DNA of 64,000 bases from a virus (taxonomy: Duplodnaviria; Caudoviricetes). The notes under the pieces were generated by a model. That model saw only the letters and a program-made list of their open reading frames with translations. It did not search any database and was not told the DNA's origin. Made by a program: the position numbers and the translations under genes. Every line of letters starts with the position of its first letter. Positions within the stretch are counted from its first letter, which is position 1. The DNA is taken from the IMG/VR virus record IMGVR_UViG_3300028797_000005, positions 32,001 through 96,000 of that record; one strand, written 5' to 3'. Below are positions 651 through 15,170 of this stretch, piece after piece.

Positions 651-2513
651 TTAACTTAGACTATGTGTATGACCATTATCGGTTACATTATGAGTCTTAC
701 TTGTGACAACTGTAGTTGCATCTGTATCTTTAATAGGTACTGTTGTATCAGCATCTGCTCTAATCGGAACAGTAACATCAGTAAATGACCAAGTAGATGC
801 ACTACCAGCTGATGTAACATTTGGAATGAAGGTTGCATCATCAGCCCTGATAGGAACGGTAACATCAGAGAAGCTCCATGTTGAAGCACTACCAGCTGAT
901 GTAACATTTGGAATACTTGTAGCGTCATCTGCTCTAATTGGAACGGTAACATCAGAGAAGCTCCATGTTGAAGCTGAACCGGCAGAAGTTACATTCGGAA
1001 TACTTGTTGCACTATCAGCGCGAATTGGAACAGTAATGTCTGTAAAACTCCAAGTAGATGCGCTGCCCGCATCCGTTACATTAGGAATACTAGTTGCATC
1101 ATCTGCACGAATTGGAACAGTAACATCTGTAAAGCTCCAAGTAGGTGCTGTGCCATTTGAACCACTCGCTGCACTTGCGGTAGTAGTTGAACTTGTACCA
1201 GTCTTAACGCCTCTAACAGTTGTTGAACCACTAACACCAGTAACACTCGTTGTATTTTCTTGAACACCATAAATACTAATTGCAGTACCAAGAGTAGGTG
1301 CTGTATGAGTGTGAGTATCAGTACCATGAGTAGCTGGAGAAAAACTAATATTTAACTGCTTCGTATCAGTGCTATCCATGGTCATTGATAAACTGCCGCC
1401 TGTAAAAGCGCCTTGGGTAAAACTACCAGAACCTGCCGCTGTTACATTTGGAATACTAGTAGCATTAGTATTTCTAATAGGAACAGTTGTAGCACTTGAC
1501 GCGGCTGTCGGTACTGTTGTATCAGCATCCGCTCTAATTGGAACAGTTACGCTTGAAAAGCTCCAGGTAGAAGCTGTTCCATTAGAACCACTTGCTTTAC
1601 TTGCTGTAGTTGTACTATTAGTTCCAGACTTAACGCCATAAATGCTAATAGGAGTTCCTAATGTTGGAGCTGTTCCATTAGCTCCGCTTGCTTTTGAAGC
1701 AGTTGTTGTACTATTAGTGCCAGATTTTACTCCGTAAATACTAATTGGAGTACCTAAAGTTGGTGCTGTACCATTTGCACCGCTAGCCTTAGAAGCTGTG
1801 GTTGTACTATTCGTACCAGACTTAACTCCGTATATAGAAATCGGTGTTCCCAATGTTGGCGCAGTTCCATTTGCACCACTAGCTTTACTTGCAGTTGTAG
1901 TGCTATTTGTCCCAGACTTAACACCATATATAGAAATTGGAGTCCCAAGTGTAGGAGCAGTTCCATTGCCACCACTAGCCTTGCTGGCCGTAGTTGTGGA
2001 ATTTTCTCCAGTCTTGACTCCTCTAACTGAAGTAGTACTAGCTTGAACACCAGTAATTGATCCAGTACTATGGTCAGCTATTGAAATGCCAGTTGTATTA
2101 CTTGCCGCGGAAGTTGGAATACTTACCGCTGAGCCATAAGCTGAAATATGGCCATTCTTATCTATTTTAATTGGATAAACAGCTTGAGTAGTTTGTGCAC
2201 TAGTAAGAACATTACTATGTCCTACTGTAATTGTCCCGCTAGTTGTAATAGGACTTCCGCTAACTGTTAAGCCGCCATCTGTTGCATTACTAACTCCAAC
2301 ACTTGTAACTGTGCCGCTGCTGAATCCTGAAATTGCCGCCTGAACAAATGCAGTAGTAGCAATTTGTGTAGTGTCTGTACCACTAGCGGCCGTCGGTGCA
2401 GTTGGAGTACCAGTTAAAGCAGGTGAAGCAAGAGGCGCATATCCACTAGTATTGTCCACTATATCATAGGTTGTTCCTTCAACCGTTAATGATTGTATTT
2501 GCGGATTTGGCAT
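651..2513 (-). CDS. Thr/Ser-rich tail fibre with nested internal repeats
   Basis: APLASPALTGTPTAPT...TQIATTAFV is a common phage tail-fibre motif. Has 32-aa and 29-aa tandem repeats and HxH motifs (THTHT, NGHTH). Confidence 0.8.
   Translation of the reverse strand: MPNPQIQSLTVEGTTYDIVDNTSGYAPLASPALTGTPTAPTAASGTDTTQIATTAFVQAAISGFSSGTVTSVGVSNATDGGLTVSGSPITTSGTITVGHSNVLTSAQTTQAVYPIKIDKNGHISAYGSAVSIPTSAASNTTGISIADHSTGSITGVQASTTSVRGVKTGENSTTTASKASGGNGTAPTLGTPISIYGVKSGTNSTTTASKASGANGTAPTLGTPISIYGVKSGTNSTTTASKASGANGTAPTLGTPISIYGVKSGTNSTTTASKASGANGTAPTLGTPISIYGVKSGTNSTTTASKASGSNGTASTWSFSSVTVPIRADADTTVPTAASSATTVPIRNTNATSIPNVTAAGSGSFTQGAFTGGSLSMTMDSTDTKQLNISFSPATHGTDTHTHTAPTLGTAISIYGVQENTTSVTGVSGSTTVRGVKTGTSSTTTASAASGSNGTAPTWSFTDVTVPIRADDATSIPNVTDAGSASTWSFTDITVPIRADSATSIPNVTSAGSASTWSFSDVTVPIRADDATSIPNVTSAGSASTWSFSDVTVPIRADDATFIPNVTSAGSASTWSFTDVTVPIRADADTTVPIKDTDATTVVTSKTHNVTDNGHTHSLS
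760..1145 (-). repeat. ~4.5 tandem 87-bp coding repeats (ASTWSFSDVTVPIRADDATSIPNVTSAGS)
   Basis: Visible in the translation and in DNA (e.g. recurring ggaacggtaacatcagagaagctccatgttgaagc). Boundaries approximate. Confidence 0.9.
1590..2010 (-). repeat. ~4.5 tandem 96-bp coding repeats (APTLGTPISIYGVKSGTNSTTTASKASGANGT)
   Basis: Near-identical peptide units in the translation; the DNA units differ at many synonymous sites. Boundaries approximate. Confidence 0.9.
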
Positions 2514-2523
2514 TATTCACCTC

Positions 2524-3327
2524 CTATGTTGTTGGGAAAAATTCACTATCAATTAAATCAATTAAATCATCATATCTTTGACGCATACAAGATTGAGCAT
2601 CCATTCTATATAATTGCATTTTAATTGTCCAATATGTATTATCTATATCAATATCACCATATCTAGTAGTATCAAAGTATGACGTACTACATCTTGTATA
2701 TAAAATTGGCGTTTTAGGCGTAATGGTAGGACTGGCTGCGCTTGTACTTGAAAGCGCTGGAGTCGGAACGCCGCTATAAAAACCATAAGAAGATGACCAA
2801 GTATAAGTTAGTTTACTACTTGTATTATAATATTGCATCCAGGCTAATGCGGCAGCATTTGTGTAAACATTAGCGTCATCATCTTTAGCTTGAATATTAG
2901 CTAAGCTACTAGGGCGTCTCATAATCTGTTGATCAAATACATTTATTTGTAAAACAGGTAACGCTGTTAAAGTCGCTGTTTCTTTATGAGCTACATGAGA
3001 GGTTACAATCCAACGAATTAAATAAGAATATTGTGCTAAATCTGTTGCTGTAAAAGTTGTAATAGATGCTGATGATCTAAGTGATTTAGCTGTTGTTGAC
3101 GCTGTCCAAGAGCTATATGTCGAACTTGATAAGTTATATGTTAAACTATAATAATTATCATTTAAACAAGTAACATTACTACCCATCCAATCATACGCAC
3201 CGCCAGGAATTGCTGTAATCGCGGCCGCCATATCATTAGGCGCATATCCTATGGTGGTTCCGCTTTTTGATCTAATGGCATTAGCAATATTGGTCATATT
3301 GCTTCTACTAATTAATACCTCTGACAT
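2524..3327 (-). CDS. Virion/tail-fibre-associated protein (putative receptor-binding head)
   Basis: N-terminal NIANAIRSKSG...MAAAITAIPGG module shared with 1..386; Ser/Thr/Tyr-rich beta-type C-terminus. Confidence 0.6.
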   Translation of the reverse strand: MSEVLISRSNMTNIANAIRSKSGTTIGYAPNDMAAAITAIPGGAYDWMGSNVTCLNDNYYSLTYNLSSSTYSSWTASTTAKSLRSSASITTFTATDLAQYSYLIRWIVTSHVAHKETATLTALPVLQINVFDQQIMRRPSSLANIQAKDDDANVYTNAAALAWMQYYNTSSKLTYTWSSSYGFYSGVPTPALSSTSAASPTITPKTPILYTRCSTSYFDTTRYGDIDIDNTYWTIKMQLYRMDAQSCMRQRYDDLIDLIDSEFFPTT

Positions 3328-3494
3328 TAGAACTCCTCACTATCCGCATTTTCTGCGGTATCGAACACTAACTCTAAGTCTAGGGTAGCGGCTGTATAAG
3401 TGGCAGTTAATTGTTTAGCTCTTGCTGTAGCATCTTTTATATCATATATTGTACCACTTGGTAGTTGAATTTGCTCAATTGTACTATTTGGCAT
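3327..3494 (-). CDS. 55-aa adaptor-like protein (below ORF-track cutoff)
   Basis: MPNSTIEQIQLPSGTIYDIKDATARAKQLTATYTAATLDLELVFDTAENADSEEF*. RBS AAGGAG; TAATG overlap with the next gene. Confidence 0.8.
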   Translation of the reverse strand: MPNSTIEQIQLPSGTIYDIKDATARAKQLTATYTAATLDLELVFDTAENADSEEF

Positions 3495-3516
3495 AATTTT
3501 TCAACTCCTTATATGA

Positions 3517-3554
3517 GTTAAACTTATCCGGAGATAAATCCGGATAAGTTTAAC
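3517..3554. other. Perfect 16-bp inverted repeat (intergenic stem-loop)
   Basis: gttaaacttatccgga-gataaa-tccggataagtttaac; no U-tract on the coding strand. Confidence 0.85.
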
Positions 3555-3563
3555 GAAAATTTA

Positions 3564-5201
3564 TTAATCAGTATCTCCACCACGGAAAACAGATACATCA
3601 GTTGAATTATTAAGAACTGTCTTCTGATCTTTACTATTCCAACTAACAGTTGTTCCAGAGGCTGCCGCACTTGCTTTGGCCTGGGTAACACCACTAATGT
3701 ATTGAACTTCATTAACATCTGTCCATTGGCTACGGTCACTACTAGTAGATAATTGAACTGTTGGTTGAGTTACTGAAGAAATACCAGTGGCAACACTAAT
3801 AACTCCTGTGCCAGCTGTCGCGCCAGTTGCAAGGCCCACAGTAGGTTGAGTAATGGTGAAAGTGGAATCTGCGCCAATAACATTGGCCGTTGTCGGACTT
3901 GAATATCCAGTAACAGCACTAAAAGTATCACCAACACTAACATCAGTAACAATATCTGCTCCACTTCCTGTAGTGGTAGTTGAACCAGTTGCTACAGTCG
4001 TTGCAGAAGATGCTGCAGTTGGAACTGTAATTGTACCAGGAGCATCTGCAGAATATGTTGTTTGCGTATCAAGTGTTGCAGCGCCAATAGTAAGTACACC
4101 ATTCGTAACACTAACACCTTTAAGCCAATCGGTATTAGTAGAGCTTGCTGTACCAGTGCCATCAGCTGTTGTCTGGGAAGTTCTTGATTGTATTACACTT
4201 GGCGTAGTGCTACCACTAACACCAGTAACTGTAGTTGTTGCTAATTTTTTCGTTGTTGGTGTAACTGATTTAACAGCACTTTCAGTACTTGGAGTACCTA
4301 ATGCAGTAATAGCCGCTTTCTGATCTTTACTATTCCAAGCCGTGCTACCGCCACTTGCAGTTGCTTTAATATTAGTAGTGGTTGGAGTAACAGCTGTTCC
4401 ACTCGCCGATGCTGTGAAAAACAGTCCTGTACTACCAGTAAGGATATCAATATCACCTGTTGATCCAGTCGATAAAGTAACTGTTGGATTACTTGCAGTT
4501 AAAGTAGAATTTGCACCAATAACATTATCAGTATATTTAACTAATGATACGTCTGTCACAACAGCTCTTAAATCAATTAAAGTATCTCCGATTTTTTCCC
4601 ATTTTTTACTACCGTCTGCTCCTACCGGAACATATTCTTCATATACATCAATGTAAGAACTTGGTGTTTGAACAATAATTTTAGTAGAACCTGTCGTTGG
4701 AGTACCATCATATTCTATTCCATATGTAGTATATAAATTAACTGGCGTAGTAGTATCAGGCGATAAATACCATGATGTACCAATATACTTAAATTCATAT
4801 AAAGTGTTAACACTATAATTGGTAGCATTAGCAAAAGTTGCTGCATTAACTTGAAGATTAGTAATTGGACCATTAGTGTCTACAATTAATTGCGGTTGTG
4901 TTCCAGATTTAACCAAATAAAACGCGCCGGCTTGTGCATGAGCACCAGCGCCTGTGGTTTCAGCTGATAAAGTACCAGTATAACTAGTATCATTATAAAT
5001 AACTGTGACGCCAGCAGGAATTTGTGCAACTTGAGGAGTACTAGCACCATCCCAAGCAATTATAAAAGATACGCCTCCAGCAACCGTCTGACTTAACGCA
5101 TCCACTACGTCTCTAATTTCTCTGTCTGCAATATAGTAAGAATTACCAGAAGGCAAAGTTATTCTTTCAATAACAGGAGTATTTACATCTGAGTATGACA
5201 T
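3564..5201 (-). CDS. Thr/Ser-rich tail fibre protein
   Basis: 545 aa, low complexity. Shares VTGVSGSTT and VPTAASSATTV with 651..2513; internal repeat WNSKDQK x2. Confidence 0.7.
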   Translation of the reverse strand: MSYSDVNTPVIERITLPSGNSYYIADREIRDVVDALSQTVAGGVSFIIAWDGASTPQVAQIPAGVTVIYNDTSYTGTLSAETTGAGAHAQAGAFYLVKSGTQPQLIVDTNGPITNLQVNAATFANATNYSVNTLYEFKYIGTSWYLSPDTTTPVNLYTTYGIEYDGTPTTGSTKIIVQTPSSYIDVYEEYVPVGADGSKKWEKIGDTLIDLRAVVTDVSLVKYTDNVIGANSTLTASNPTVTLSTGSTGDIDILTGSTGLFFTASASGTAVTPTTTNIKATASGGSTAWNSKDQKAAITALGTPSTESAVKSVTPTTKKLATTTVTGVSGSTTPSVIQSRTSQTTADGTGTASSTNTDWLKGVSVTNGVLTIGAATLDTQTTYSADAPGTITVPTAASSATTVATGSTTTTGSGADIVTDVSVGDTFSAVTGYSSPTTANVIGADSTFTITQPTVGLATGATAGTGVISVATGISSVTQPTVQLSTSSDRSQWTDVNEVQYISGVTQAKASAAASGTTVSWNSKDQKTVLNNSTDVSVFRGGDTD

Positions 5202-11546: not shown

Positions 11547-11591
11547 CTTATTCAACCCACTAAGGTAGGGTTGCACCAGAAAGGTTTAGTA

Positions 11592-12138
11592 CGTATCATT
11601 GGGGCTTCCCCCTACAACCAATCAAAACTTGATTTAATCAATCACGGTGGAGATAAGTCTGAGCAGAAGGGAGCTACCCTCAAGCTTCTTACCCCGGTCT
11701 CTCGACCTAGTACACCGACAGGATTGGAACCTGCTACTTTCACCCGCTTTCAGAAACCTTCATGTTGTTTAAACATACAACTTTTATCTTGTATGTTGCG
11801 GCTGTTGGGCTACTCGTACCTTCCTTAGTGTCATAGCCGGATTTCACGGCTTCTCCGCAAATTCGATTCTTTGGTATTCCCTTAGGGGCCTTACTTGGTT
11901 ACCAGTCAAGCGGCATAAGGGTTATTCTCCACAGGAGCGTCTATTACTCGAACCACTTCGGAAGTATTTTAATCTTATTAAGTTGGTGCGCTGTTACTAT
12001 ACTTTGAGGTTTGACTCTCTTCAGGACTAAAGGCTTATTCACCTAATCCAGCATCTCACTTAAAGAACTATCGTTCTAAAAGGATTAGCACATAGCCACC
12101 CCGGCAGGTTGCGCCTTCTACACCGGGATAATGATACG
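11592..12138 (-). ncRNA. Large structured ncRNA, ROOL-like (~547 nt)
   Basis: GC-enriched and without a credible ORF. Closed by a 9-bp terminal helix CGUAUCAUU/AAUGAUACG; many GNRA-capped hairpins and a T-loop arm; bracketed by promoters and a terminator. Size, phage/Firmicute context and recalled motifs (GUGGAGAAUAACC, GAGUAGCCCAA, GGGUAGCUCCC, GCUCAGAC) fit ROOL. Not confirmed by a covariance model. Confidence 0.7.
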
Positions 12139-12202
12139 GGAATTTTAGTTCAGCCGAAGCCTTAACAGCTGCGCCACGGGAAGGCAATTCCATGCAGCCA
12201 TC

Positions 12203-13328: not shown

Positions 13329-13644
13329 AATTAGTCATCACCGCCAAGTTCAGCTTTGCATTAAGCAAATCAAGCCAAGTAGAAAGATTCTTACCCTTTC
13401 TCCAATACGCGACAGGATAATAAGAACCCTTGCCTTCAATCGTTACATCATCACCAAAGAACAGTTTAATGAAGCGCAGATAATCCACATAAGTCAGACC
13501 AAGCACCCGTGCCGGCGCGACATTATAACTTCCACCATTTTTTGTATTAAAAGGGAAAGTCTCATAATCAGCTGGCACAATAATGCAACGAGTCATATCG
13601 CCAGGAATTGCCTCCCTATATGTAAAATATACTTTCTTCGCCAT
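13315..13644 (-). CDS. Hypothetical protein
   Basis: Likely start ATG 13644 overlapping the upstream stop (TAATG). Confidence 0.65.
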   Translation of the reverse strand: MAKKVYFTYREAIPGDMTRCIIVPADYETFPFNTKNGGSYNVAPARVLGLTYVDYLRFIKLFFGDDVTIEGKGSYYPVAYWRKGKNLSTWLDLLNAKLNLAVMTNYGNN

Positions 13645-13946
13645 TACAGAGACAACTCCTTCCAATACTCTTCCATCTCAACTCTTTCATCGCCAGTTAA
13701 GTCAAGCAGCCACGGGTCTTCCATCAAATTTTTACTCATAACGAAAGTCTCAAGACGCAATCTCATAGCCTCACCATCTATCTGGACAGGCTGAATATCA
13801 GCTTCCGGCACATAACCGGGAATGACATATCTCTTGACAGTCGAAGCTGAAATTCCAAGTTCCCTACCTACGGCGGCATAAGTCTTAAGTTTTAAATATC
13901 TTTCATTAATCTGTTTCTTAATTTCCGGCGTAATTCGCGTAGCCAT
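13644..13946 (-). CDS. Helix-turn-helix DNA-binding protein
   Basis: TYAAVGRELGISASTVKRYV is a typical HTH. Confidence 0.8.
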   Translation of the reverse strand: MATRITPEIKKQINERYLKLKTYAAVGRELGISASTVKRYVIPGYVPEADIQPVQIDGEAMRLRLETFVMSKNLMEDPWLLDLTGDERVEMEEYWKELSL

Positions 13947-14163
13947 ATCTTATCTCCTTATTAAAGAACTTACCTGCGGACTCTGCGCCCATCCAATCAC
14001 GGACAACTCTCTCAGGAATACCCGGATAAGAATATACTCCACCATGAGAGAAAGTTACGCTCAAGATATTGGTTTCTTTGTTGTAAGTAAAGTCTTTAAT
14101 ACAAGCTGAGTTGATTACCTGTGCAATAATTTCTTTGTTATTTTCAAAAATCTGTACGTTCAT
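13918..14163 (-). CDS. KTSC-domain protein
   Basis: S..I....Y...T..L.V.F..GG.Y.Y.G.P.......M.AES.GKFFN.EIR matches the KTSC pattern. Confidence 0.85.
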   Translation of the reverse strand: MNVQIFENNKEIIAQVINSACIKDFTYNKETNILSVTFSHGGVYSYPGIPERVVRDWMGAESAGKFFNKEIRYGYANYAGN

Positions 14164-14252
14164 TTTCTTTTCCTTTCACTAATAATCCAGTCTGTAATTA
14201 AAAATCCACAAGCAAATCCACCTAAACCACAAATAAAATATATCGCCGCCAT
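14160..14252 (-). CDS. 30-aa single-TM peptide
   Basis: MAAIYFICGLGGFACGFLITDWIISERKRK*; RBS GAGGTG; ATGA overlap with the KTSC gene. Confidence 0.5.
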   Translation of the reverse strand: MAAIYFICGLGGFACGFLITDWIISERKRK

Positions 14253-14279
14253 ACCTACACCTCTTTCAATTCTATATAT

Positions 14280-14340
14280 AGTATATCATATATTTATATT
14301 TTTTTCAAATTTTGACTTTTTTTAAAAAATACGATATACT
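14280..14340. promoter_or_regulatory. Back-to-back divergent sigmaA promoters
   Basis: Minus: TTGAAA(14308-14303)-N17-TATACT. Plus: TTGACT(14312)-N17-TATACT(14335-14340). Confidence 0.85.
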
Positions 14341-14345
14341 ATAAT

Positions 14346-14627
14346 TGGTGAGGTGGAAAGTAGTGAAGTCCACATAAAACTCATCGGGAGGCGACGGCTG
14401 AAACCGGCGTGGCATATTCGTAAGGGATATGCTAGTATATTCACGATCCTTGACGGCTCCGGAAGCGGTGCTGCTAAAACGCGTTTTAATCCATAGCTTA
14501 TAGGAAGTTAAAGTAGGTCTGGGCTGGCGTTCAGGCTTATTAAGTGTACCCAAATTCCGATTTTCGATTTGCGATGAGAGGGGTTTGGGGAGAGTATTTT
14601 TCTTAACTTCCTAAGCGGTGGATTAAA
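14346..14627 (+). ncRNA. Unidentified structured ncRNA (~280 nt)
   Basis: Own promoter, GC-enriched, no RBS-led ORF. Stems GGUGAG/CUCAUC, GUGGA/UCCAC, UUUAAUCCA/UGGAUUAAA, UAGGAAGUUAA/UUAACUUCCUA, CCCAAA/UUUGGG. Confidence 0.65.
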
Positions 14628-14628
14628 T

Positions 14629-14657
14629 TTGATTTTTTTATAAATTTATTATATAAT
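14629..14657 (+). promoter_or_regulatory. SigmaA promoter for the rnhA operon
   Basis: TTGATT-N17-TATAAT. Confidence 0.8.
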
Positions 14658-14687
14658 AAATATATAATAGTAAGGAAGGATAAAAGA

Positions 14688-15170
14688 ATGATATGTATTT
14701 ACACCGACGGCGCTTGTAGTTTTAATGGATCATCTGATGCAATAGCAGGATGGTCTTTTTGCGTTGTTAGAGGGAATGAACTATTAGATAAATATTATGG
14801 TACTGTTTATAATGGAACCAATAATATTGGCGAACTTTGGGGTATCCTTAGCGCATTGACTTATATTGATAAATGGGCAGAAGAAGAAACTGAAATTATT
14901 ATTTATTCTGATTCAGCTTATTGTGTTAATGGCGCAAATGAATGGCGGCATAATTGGCGGTGCAATGGTTGGAAAAGAAGTAGTGGAGAACTTAAGAACG
15001 CAGAACTCTGGCAAAGCATTGATTATTTCTTAAATAAACACCCTAATGTAAGAATAGAAAAAGTTAAGGGCCATGCTGGAGTTGATTGGAACGATTATGC
15101 TGACACACTAGCTAAGAAAGGAGTAGAAGATGGAAAAAATAGTCATAGACCTGACGAACTTTACGGATAG
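14688..15170 (+). CDS. rnhA: Ribonuclease HI
   Basis: IYTDGAC, TNNIGEL, YSDSAY, KNAELW, KVKGHAG..WND.AD.LA motifs. Confidence 0.95.
   Translation: MICIYTDGACSFNGSSDAIAGWSFCVVRGNELLDKYYGTVYNGTNNIGELWGILSALTYIDKWAEEETEIIIYSDSAYCVNGANEWRHNWRCNGWKRSSGELKNAELWQSIDYFLNKHPNVRIEKVKGHAGVDWNDYADTLAKKGVEDGKNSHRPDELYG

Follow-up and report, generated by a model that had tools for sequence, protein, structure and literature searches.

ROOL and GOLLD are abundant RNAs that form RNA-only cages and, to our knowledge, what these cages do is known to nobody. Both (ROOL, RF03087; GOLLD, RF01998) are encoded by phages, fold intricately, do not code for protein and are expressed from host-type promoters, with no obligatory protein partner known and no established function, and in all of these respects they resemble the RNA described here, whose promoter is predicted. 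ROOL and GOLLD oligomerize (bioRxiv 10.1101/2024.12.08.627333). The new RNA differs in its size (~290 nt versus ~580 or ~800 nt), in lacking sequence or covariance-model similarity to either family, in having no tRNAs nearby, and in its restriction to one narrow phage clade. Three other described systems invite comparison. 6S RNA (RF00013) belongs to a similar size class, and a closing stem around an open region is seen in the fold of the sequence analyzed here; however, the 6S model gives no match, and the new RNA has two domains with a three-way junction and no conserved rod. RNA II of ColE1/pMB1, which in ColE1 requires a defined fold, is a folded transcript of a few hundred nucleotides (as predicted for the new RNA) with its promoter beside replication functions, and an RNase H gene alongside is a further likeness of the two loci; in contrast, the new RNA has no homology to RNA II and no antisense partner of the RNA I type, and it is absent from sister phages that share the replication genes. 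The put RNA of phage HK022 (~70 nt) and the EAR element (~120 nt) lie directly after a promoter that heads a long operon and have no terminator behind them, as is the case here, but the new RNA is much larger, is followed by a second promoter, and shows no Rfam model similarity.

The locus belongs to an uncultivated phage known from a record of 123,246 bp. The DNA analyzed, hereafter the window, is a stretch of 64,000 nt that corresponds to bases 32001-96000 of this record. A direct repeat of 127 bp at the two ends of the record (genome 1-127 and 123120-123246) looks more like the overlap of a circular assembly than like genuine long terminal repeats. Cultured phages are distant, with the ligase at most 32% identical to the ligases of Bacillus and Brevibacillus phages. 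The RNA occupies a gene-free gap of 435 nt at a divergent strand switch. To its left lies a minus-strand operon for a 30-aa peptide, a KTSC-domain protein, a Sigma70_r4-like helix-turn-helix (HTH) protein and two unknown proteins, and to its right a plus-strand replication cluster of ~31 kb which begins with RNase HI, dNMP kinase and ATP-dependent ligase and also encodes a helicase. ROOL is the only Rfam family that reaches its gathering score across the whole window, and no tRNAs were found within it. In the window the KTSC/HTH operon sits between the two RNAs, an adjacency that varies among relatives. The main features of the locus are as follows.

11584-12151, minus strand: ROOL RNA (Rfam RF03087, 273 bits), 2.2 kb from the new RNA
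13644-13946, minus-strand operon left of the gap: Sigma70_r4-like HTH protein
13918-14163, minus-strand operon left of the gap: KTSC-domain protein
14312-14340, plus strand: putative promoter of the RNA, TTGACT-17-TATACT, 10 of 12 consensus positions
14346-14627, plus strand: the new RNA
14629-14657, plus strand: predicted second promoter, for rnhA and the plus-strand replication genes, TTGATT-17-TATAAT, 10 of 12 consensus positions
14688-15170, plus strand: RNase HI gene (rnhA; Pfam RNase_H, E 4.7e-29), the first gene of the cluster here and outside the RNA

The tract at 14346-14627 contains 41-46% G+C compared with 29-37% in its flanks, and no conserved open reading frame was found in any frame, with stops falling at differing places across homologues and indels that are not multiples of three. 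The preliminary description had reported a GC-enriched non-coding tract folding into a structured RNA, and both parts of that claim are borne out. The plus strand folds with a minimum free energy (MFE) of -102.2 kcal/mol (z -4.94), which none of 200 dinucleotide shuffles equals, and the minus strand with a z of -1.95. Among the five sequence types of the family the plus-strand z values are -4.5, -5.0, -2.4, -6.3 and -1.7, each of them better than that of its own minus strand. The RNA is assigned to the plus strand because of these folding energies and of its G-U pairs. Together with the covarying 5' domain of the relatives, the folding argues strongly that this is a genuine family of structured RNAs encoded on the plus strand, a conclusion in which we have high confidence.

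Relatives were reached through RNase H homologues of 55-66% identity on syntenic contigs, all of which conserve the gap, and then through the members of 90% clusters, with one more copy from a motif scan of metagenomes. This collection of homologues upstream of rnhA, a check suggested by the preliminary description, yielded 13 distinct full-length sequences on syntenic metagenomic phage contigs and a conserved, covarying structure in the 5' domain. The sequences fall into five types: 1) the window; 2) L002, L004 and L008; 3) L022 and L026-29; 4) L006; and 5) L005 and L030-34. Blocks that are invariant throughout the family include GACGGCUCCGGAAGCGGUG, AAACGCGUUU, GGCGAC, AGGCUUAUUA and AACUUCCUAA. 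Constant features of the family are the position of the RNA at the strand switch, heading the plus-strand cluster, and a ROOL RNA at a distance of 2-4 kb wherever the locus is long enough to show it (window, L002, L005, L006 and L032). Direct adjacency to rnhA was implied by the preliminary description and does not hold as a rule: an open reading frame of 43 aa in L002 and of 65 aa in L030, L031 and L034 intervenes between the unit of RNA plus promoter and rnhA. Adjacency to the KTSC gene is broken in L030-L034 by DUF5758 and pentapeptide-repeat genes, which makes the KTSC side of the switch a variable accessory region. These inserts lie on the minus strand at 1959-3750 in L030 and L031, 2851-3666 in L032, and 2621-3436 in L034.

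Wider searches recovered few further members. Motif scans of JGI metagenomes and GTDB genomes gave one true match, L008, which is a copy of L002/L004; the remaining matches, in unrelated bacteria, were attributed to chance. Exact-motif scans of IMG/VR gave no match, nor did BLAST of the RNA and of ROOL against 50,697 GenBank phages. A search of IMG/VR with the single RNase H protein as query found no relative, and a search with an RNase H alignment found 80 loci whose RNase H is 34-46% identical; within 3 kb of the gene in these 80 phages, the best result was one match at chance level (11 bits, E 0.9). A covariance model of the 5' domain (R1) applied to 151 Clostridia genomes produced one 21-bit match, which lies inside a 723-aa open reading frame and was taken as chance, and ROOL was not found in the 101 of these genomes that were searched for it. 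Three syntenic contigs with an RNase H of 45-46% identity (L018, L019 and L020) do not carry the RNA; the gap at its position in L019 is just 206 nt. Together with the 80 IMG/VR phages, these contigs speak against the specific link to RNase H that had been proposed for the RNA. In L019 a gene for a 488-aa DUF2828/DUF7788 protein (2328-3794, minus strand) lies between the KTSC operon and rnhA. A 103-kb IMG/VR phage, L050 (RNase H 42% identical), has a divergent gap of 430 nt before rnhA (2559-2988) which was considered and rejected as a homologue (z -2.4). The L050 gap carries a TG-extended promoter of the same type and a central hairpin.

Comparison with catalogued families gave no assignment. 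All 4227 models of Rfam 15 were run on 14100-14800 at E<=10 and returned two opposite-strand matches of ~20 bits, which are meaningless; the RNA of the window, of L002 and of L006, scanned at gathering thresholds and at E<=10, gave only mutually inconsistent matches at chance level, below 21 bits. The ROOL model matches at 11584-12151 on the minus strand and not in the region of the new RNA. A retron or DGR-type RNA was considered and dismissed, as no RVT_1 match, and so no reverse transcriptase, was found across the 123-kb genome. The suspicion that the family had not been recognized before, for which an Rfam scan was the proposed check, is thus upheld. In its compensatory changes and its lack of coding potential, the RNA resembles the stand-alone structured non-coding RNAs ROOL, GOLLD and raiA, and it is a new, rare and uncatalogued phage non-coding RNA family that accompanies ROOL.

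The structure was drawn by hand from the sequences, built into covariance models for the 5' domain (R1) and the 3' domain (R2), and the members were realigned. The 5' domain comprises the following elements.

14346-14385, plus strand: P1/P1a, a two-part hairpin with GGUGAG/CUCAUC as outer and GUGGA/UCCAC as inner helix and a conserved loop UAGU
14391-14410, plus strand: P2, a short hairpin whose base, GCG/CGU, is invariant and whose tip varies, with a conserved A-G mismatch
14411-14433, plus strand: P3, a hairpin with the GNRA tetraloop GUAA at 14420-14423 (GCAA in one relative)
14434-14441, plus strand: J3/4, which precedes P4 and reads GGCUUAUU in relatives
14442-14484, plus strand: P4, an irregular long hairpin that contains the invariant 19-mer GACGGCUCCGGAAGCGGUG (14452-14470) and AAACGCGUUU

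Evidence for this domain comes from 11 distinct sequences, in which pairing holds in 96.7% of cells and 15 of the 38 pairs are changed on both sides. Such double-sided changes affect 6 of the 11 pairs of P1/P1a (94-95% of cells paired), two pairs of P2 (98.6% paired) and all seven pairs of P3, the loop of which, GUAAG, is invariant save in L026 (GCAAG). As P4 is nearly invariant, covariation is mute on this hairpin (100% paired). In 500 column shuffles none reached the observed pairing, the number of doubly changed pairs or cells, or the covariation score, and two matched the count of further pair types; when partners were slid by 1-3 columns as a control, pairing fell to 31-48%. The stems GGUGAG/CUCAUC and GUGGA/UCCAC and the GUAA-capped hairpin, all of them named in the preliminary description, are present and covary in relatives. 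Its further stem CGUG/CACG has two invariant sides and competes with other invariant pairings. RNAalifold also suggested that the 5' end pairs over a long distance with AACUUCCUA; this was set aside, as P1 covaries and the proposed partner does not vary, and neither the L005 group nor the window can form these pairs.

The 3' domain is organized around a closing helix and two hairpins.

14485-14493, plus strand: 5' arm of P5, UUUAAUCCA, with its partner at 14619-14627
14497-14513, plus strand: 5' arm of P6, CUUAUAGGAAGUUAAAG, with its partner at 14602-14615
14514-14539, plus strand: P7, a hairpin with a conserved base AGUCU/AGGCU and a variable tip, with the second GGCUUAUU motif on its 3' arm
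14549-14589, plus strand: P8, a long hairpin, CCCAAAUUCC/GGGGUUUGGG in the window, drawn from independent MFE folds
14602-14627, plus strand: 3' strand of P6 with the invariant AACUUCCUAA, the second AAGCGGUG motif, and the 3' arm of P5 with UGGAUUAAA at 14619-14627

Folded alone, each of the five types adopts the same plan of P5 followed by P7 and P8 on a three-way junction, and P5 closes the domain in the MFE folds of all five. The relatives form P5 from UUUAAUCAAAU/AUUUGAUUAAA, ~8 nt farther 3'; the window helix UUUAAUCCA/UGGAUUAAA is a register-shifted replacement, with the -35 box of the next promoter unchanged in position. P6 is long and nearly perfect in the window alone and is 65% paired across the family, with its 3' strand AACUUCCUAA invariant. 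Two tip pairs of P7 are doubly changed. In the relatives P8 is formed by CC(C/U)UUCUU(C/U) (CCCUUCUUC) with GAAGAGGGG, plus an inner helix UCCCC/GGGGA; nine pairs of P8 and P8a show C/U exchanges opposite G, which preserve pairing on the plus strand only. The domain (P5-P8) is kept mainly by G-U/G-C exchanges and, in the window, by a shifted P5 and a rebuilt P8, and its covariation in the column alignment does not exceed that of shuffles. Its last ~60 nt, which overlap a promoter, are almost invariant among relatives, and part of this conservation may reflect a function of the DNA. The 3' half had been described as a long rod with a ~20-bp closing stem and a central bubble. The closing stem and two hairpins of that description stand, arranged on a three-way junction rather than along a rod; a closing stem of ~20 bp is specific to the window, since the family as a whole keeps P5 and pairs only 65% of P6.

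Two short motifs recur between the domains. AAGCGGUG (AAGCGGUGUC in most relatives) occurs once per domain, at 14463-14470 and 14613-14620 in the window, and in relatives GGCUUAUU likewise occurs once per domain and in the same order. These conserved repeats could be two binding sites for one partner; they are too short to be significant alone. Several further resemblances were examined and rejected. An internal duplication of the two domains was not accepted, as the shared 8-10 nt are not significant and R1 gives no match in the 3' domain. Resemblance to the P4 of RNase P (AAGUCU...GGCUUA) reflects a local hairpin here, with no RNase P model match, and resemblance to an 11-nt tetraloop receptor (UAUGG...CCUAAAG) is non-canonical, with a variable 5' strand. 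No credible additional pseudoknots were found by covariation.

The two separate promoters of the preliminary description were both found, and consensus scans show that these sigma-70-like elements flank the RNA in all five sequence types. P1 starts 6-7 nt past the -10 hexamer in every type (TTGAnn-17-TATACT). At the other end, the -10 element of the second promoter is scored as TG-extended in the four relatives scanned (L002, L005, L006 and L022) and not in the window, and the -35 box of these relatives falls within the 3' arm of P5. Scans of the window and of the same four relatives scored no canonical intrinsic terminator after the RNA. The window alone has a U-rich run (14628-14640) after its AU-rich P5. 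The 3' boundary is thus marked just by P5, which abuts or overlaps the second promoter, and the RNA ends at least 45 nt upstream of the rnhA ribosome-binding site; neither a terminator/antiterminator alternative nor a sequestered ribosome-binding site is visible. Transcription from the upstream promoter probably continues into the replication genes, and this would also fit a leader. Between the divergent promoters of the relatives (L002, ~3435-3455; equivalents in L005 and L006 at columns 95-125 of alignment A1) lies an alternating purine-pyrimidine tract, ACGCGCACGCACG or GCGTGGGCGCGTGTATGTGCGCG. The window does not have this tract, and its two divergent -35 boxes are 3 bp apart.

We tentatively favor the explanation that 14346-14627 on the plus strand encodes a structured non-coding RNA with two domains and a length of ~285-300 nt, which is separately expressed and acts in trans. 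Such an RNA would be synthesized early from its own host-type promoter and released as a discrete molecule through weak termination or cleavage near P5. By analogy, its invariant unpaired junctions, GNRA loop and invariant P4 tip may bind a protein or another RNA in trans, and it would probably belong to the same accessory module as the neighboring ROOL RNA. A stand-alone RNA is favored because 1) the fold starts where transcription is predicted to start; 2) P5, the conserved closing helix, has been kept independently of the promoter that overlaps it; 3) a promoter intervenes before the first open reading frame, so that control in cis would be bypassed; 4) the first downstream gene varies, being rnhA, the 43-aa or the 65-aa open reading frame; and 5) invariant junctions, a GNRA loop and variable tips typify RNAs that serve as docking partners of proteins or of other RNAs. 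Against it stand the absence of a terminator, the 3'-domain covariation that does not rise above shuffles, and the small number of close relatives.

The main rival, which owes its weight to the lack of a terminator between the RNA and the operon, is a cis-acting 5' leader of the ~31-kb replication cluster that modifies RNA polymerase or the mRNA. It could do so by processive antitermination in the manner of HK022 put or EAR, by stabilizing the mRNA, or by ligand- or protein-sensing control, with the second promoter yielding unregulated transcripts. Such a role would suit an RNA that always heads the plus-strand cluster at the strand switch, that has no intrinsic terminator before the downstream genes in relatives, and whose junction nucleotides are as highly conserved as those of a riboswitch; judged by its sequence, the invariant pyrimidine-rich AACUUCCUAA could also pair with purine-rich ribosome-binding sites. 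We nevertheless consider a leader unlikely, if still a serious possibility, since the conserved promoter between the RNA and the first open reading frame in all five types would let most transcripts bypass the RNA, the RNA ends at least 45 nt before the ribosome-binding site with no visible terminator/antiterminator alternative, the first downstream gene is inconstant, phages with the same gene order and without the RNA exist, and ~290 nt is far above the sizes of put and EAR. Replication offers a different role next to the same genes: on the model of ColE1 RNA II or of T4 oriF/oriG, the transcript would form an R-loop at the AT-rich tract downstream and, trimmed by RNase HI, prime the leading strand. 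The divergent strand switch beside an AT-rich tract and replication genes (rnhA, dNMP kinase, ligase and helicase) fits this proposal, and so does the cumulative GC skew, which reaches a local minimum near 46 kb on the genome, or ~14 kb in window coordinates. However, the skew does not single out the RNA site, because it reverses at each change of gene orientation (46, 77 and 118 kb), and its global minimum lies at 118 kb. Related phages with the same replication genes do not have the RNA, which would be odd for an origin; no iterons, promoter for an antisense regulator or conserved G-rich/C-rich hybrid pair were seen in the window and the scanned relatives; and the AT-rich tract is simply a promoter. 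An origin or primer RNA thus appears improbable.

Two further explanations would assign the folding a smaller or a different part. The tract might be mostly a DNA-level control region in which RNA folding is incidental, made up of operators for the HTH protein, repeated AAGCGGTG and GGCTTATT boxes and promoter-upstream elements, and the near-invariant last ~60 nt that overlap the downstream promoter, the two conserved copies each of AAGCGGUG and GGCUUAUU, and the nearby Sigma70_r4-like HTH gene are all in keeping with this. We regard it as very unlikely nonetheless: the 15 compensatory pairs in P1, P1a, P2 and P3 are inexplicable by DNA, folding is strand-asymmetric, with G-U pairs that become A-C on the other strand, and P5 of the window has been rebuilt in a new register with the -35 box unmoved. 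The preliminary description had also raised the idea of a decoy of host RNA polymerase, in which a 3' rod like that of 6S RNA would mimic an open promoter. The window, and it alone, does have a P5+P6 stem of ~24 bp around an open junction. RF00013, however, is unmatched at E<=10 in all three members scanned (window, L002 and L006), P6 is only 65% paired in the family, where the conserved shape is a multi-hairpin fold with a three-way junction and the rod is specific to the window, and a separate multi-hairpin domain makes up half of the RNA, so that such a decoy is hardly to be expected.

The new RNA and ROOL are co-conserved around one small operon, and a second, smaller structured RNA travels with ROOL in one phage lineage. 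A functional partnership with the ROOL nanocage, in which the RNA would serve as cargo or cap or would help the cage to assemble or open, is in our estimation a long shot; if true, it would provide the first experimental handle on the function of the ROOL cage. A global RNA-RNA duplex with ROOL scores no better than shuffles. Separately, the invariant AGGCUUAUU (window 14533-14541), which occurs twice in the RNA of relatives, exactly complements AAUAAGCCU in the ROOL of the same phage in the window, L002 and L006. AAUAAGCCU has two sites in the ROOL of L002 and is absent from that of L005, and the chance expectation for such a 9-mer complement is estimated at ~0.6 per RNA pair. The RNA offers sharp predicted boundaries and a compact invariant core, made up of the 19-nt P4 tip, the GNRA loop and the two repeated motifs, and its size suits direct structure probing, cryo-EM and binding tests. 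Even as the leader of a phage replication operon, it would be unusual in its size and elaborateness. Rarity limits its value, with five sequence types, probably one habitat, and no cultured host or phage.

Contig labels such as SHIW14-1_SAMN0214423x and AUXO01 are presumably those of sheep-rumen metagenomes. The family is a small and closely related one, with five types that probably come from one habitat, likely the rumen. Such an origin of the contigs would fit that of ROOL, which was first found in rumen data (PMC5737381). A minor observation concerns the KTSC gene, whose product is 81 aa in the window phage. In L024 the deposited call for its homologue (192-575) is 127 aa long and translates only if TAG is read as Gln, which hints either at an artefact of a gene caller reading through a stop or at stop-codon recoding in a relative.
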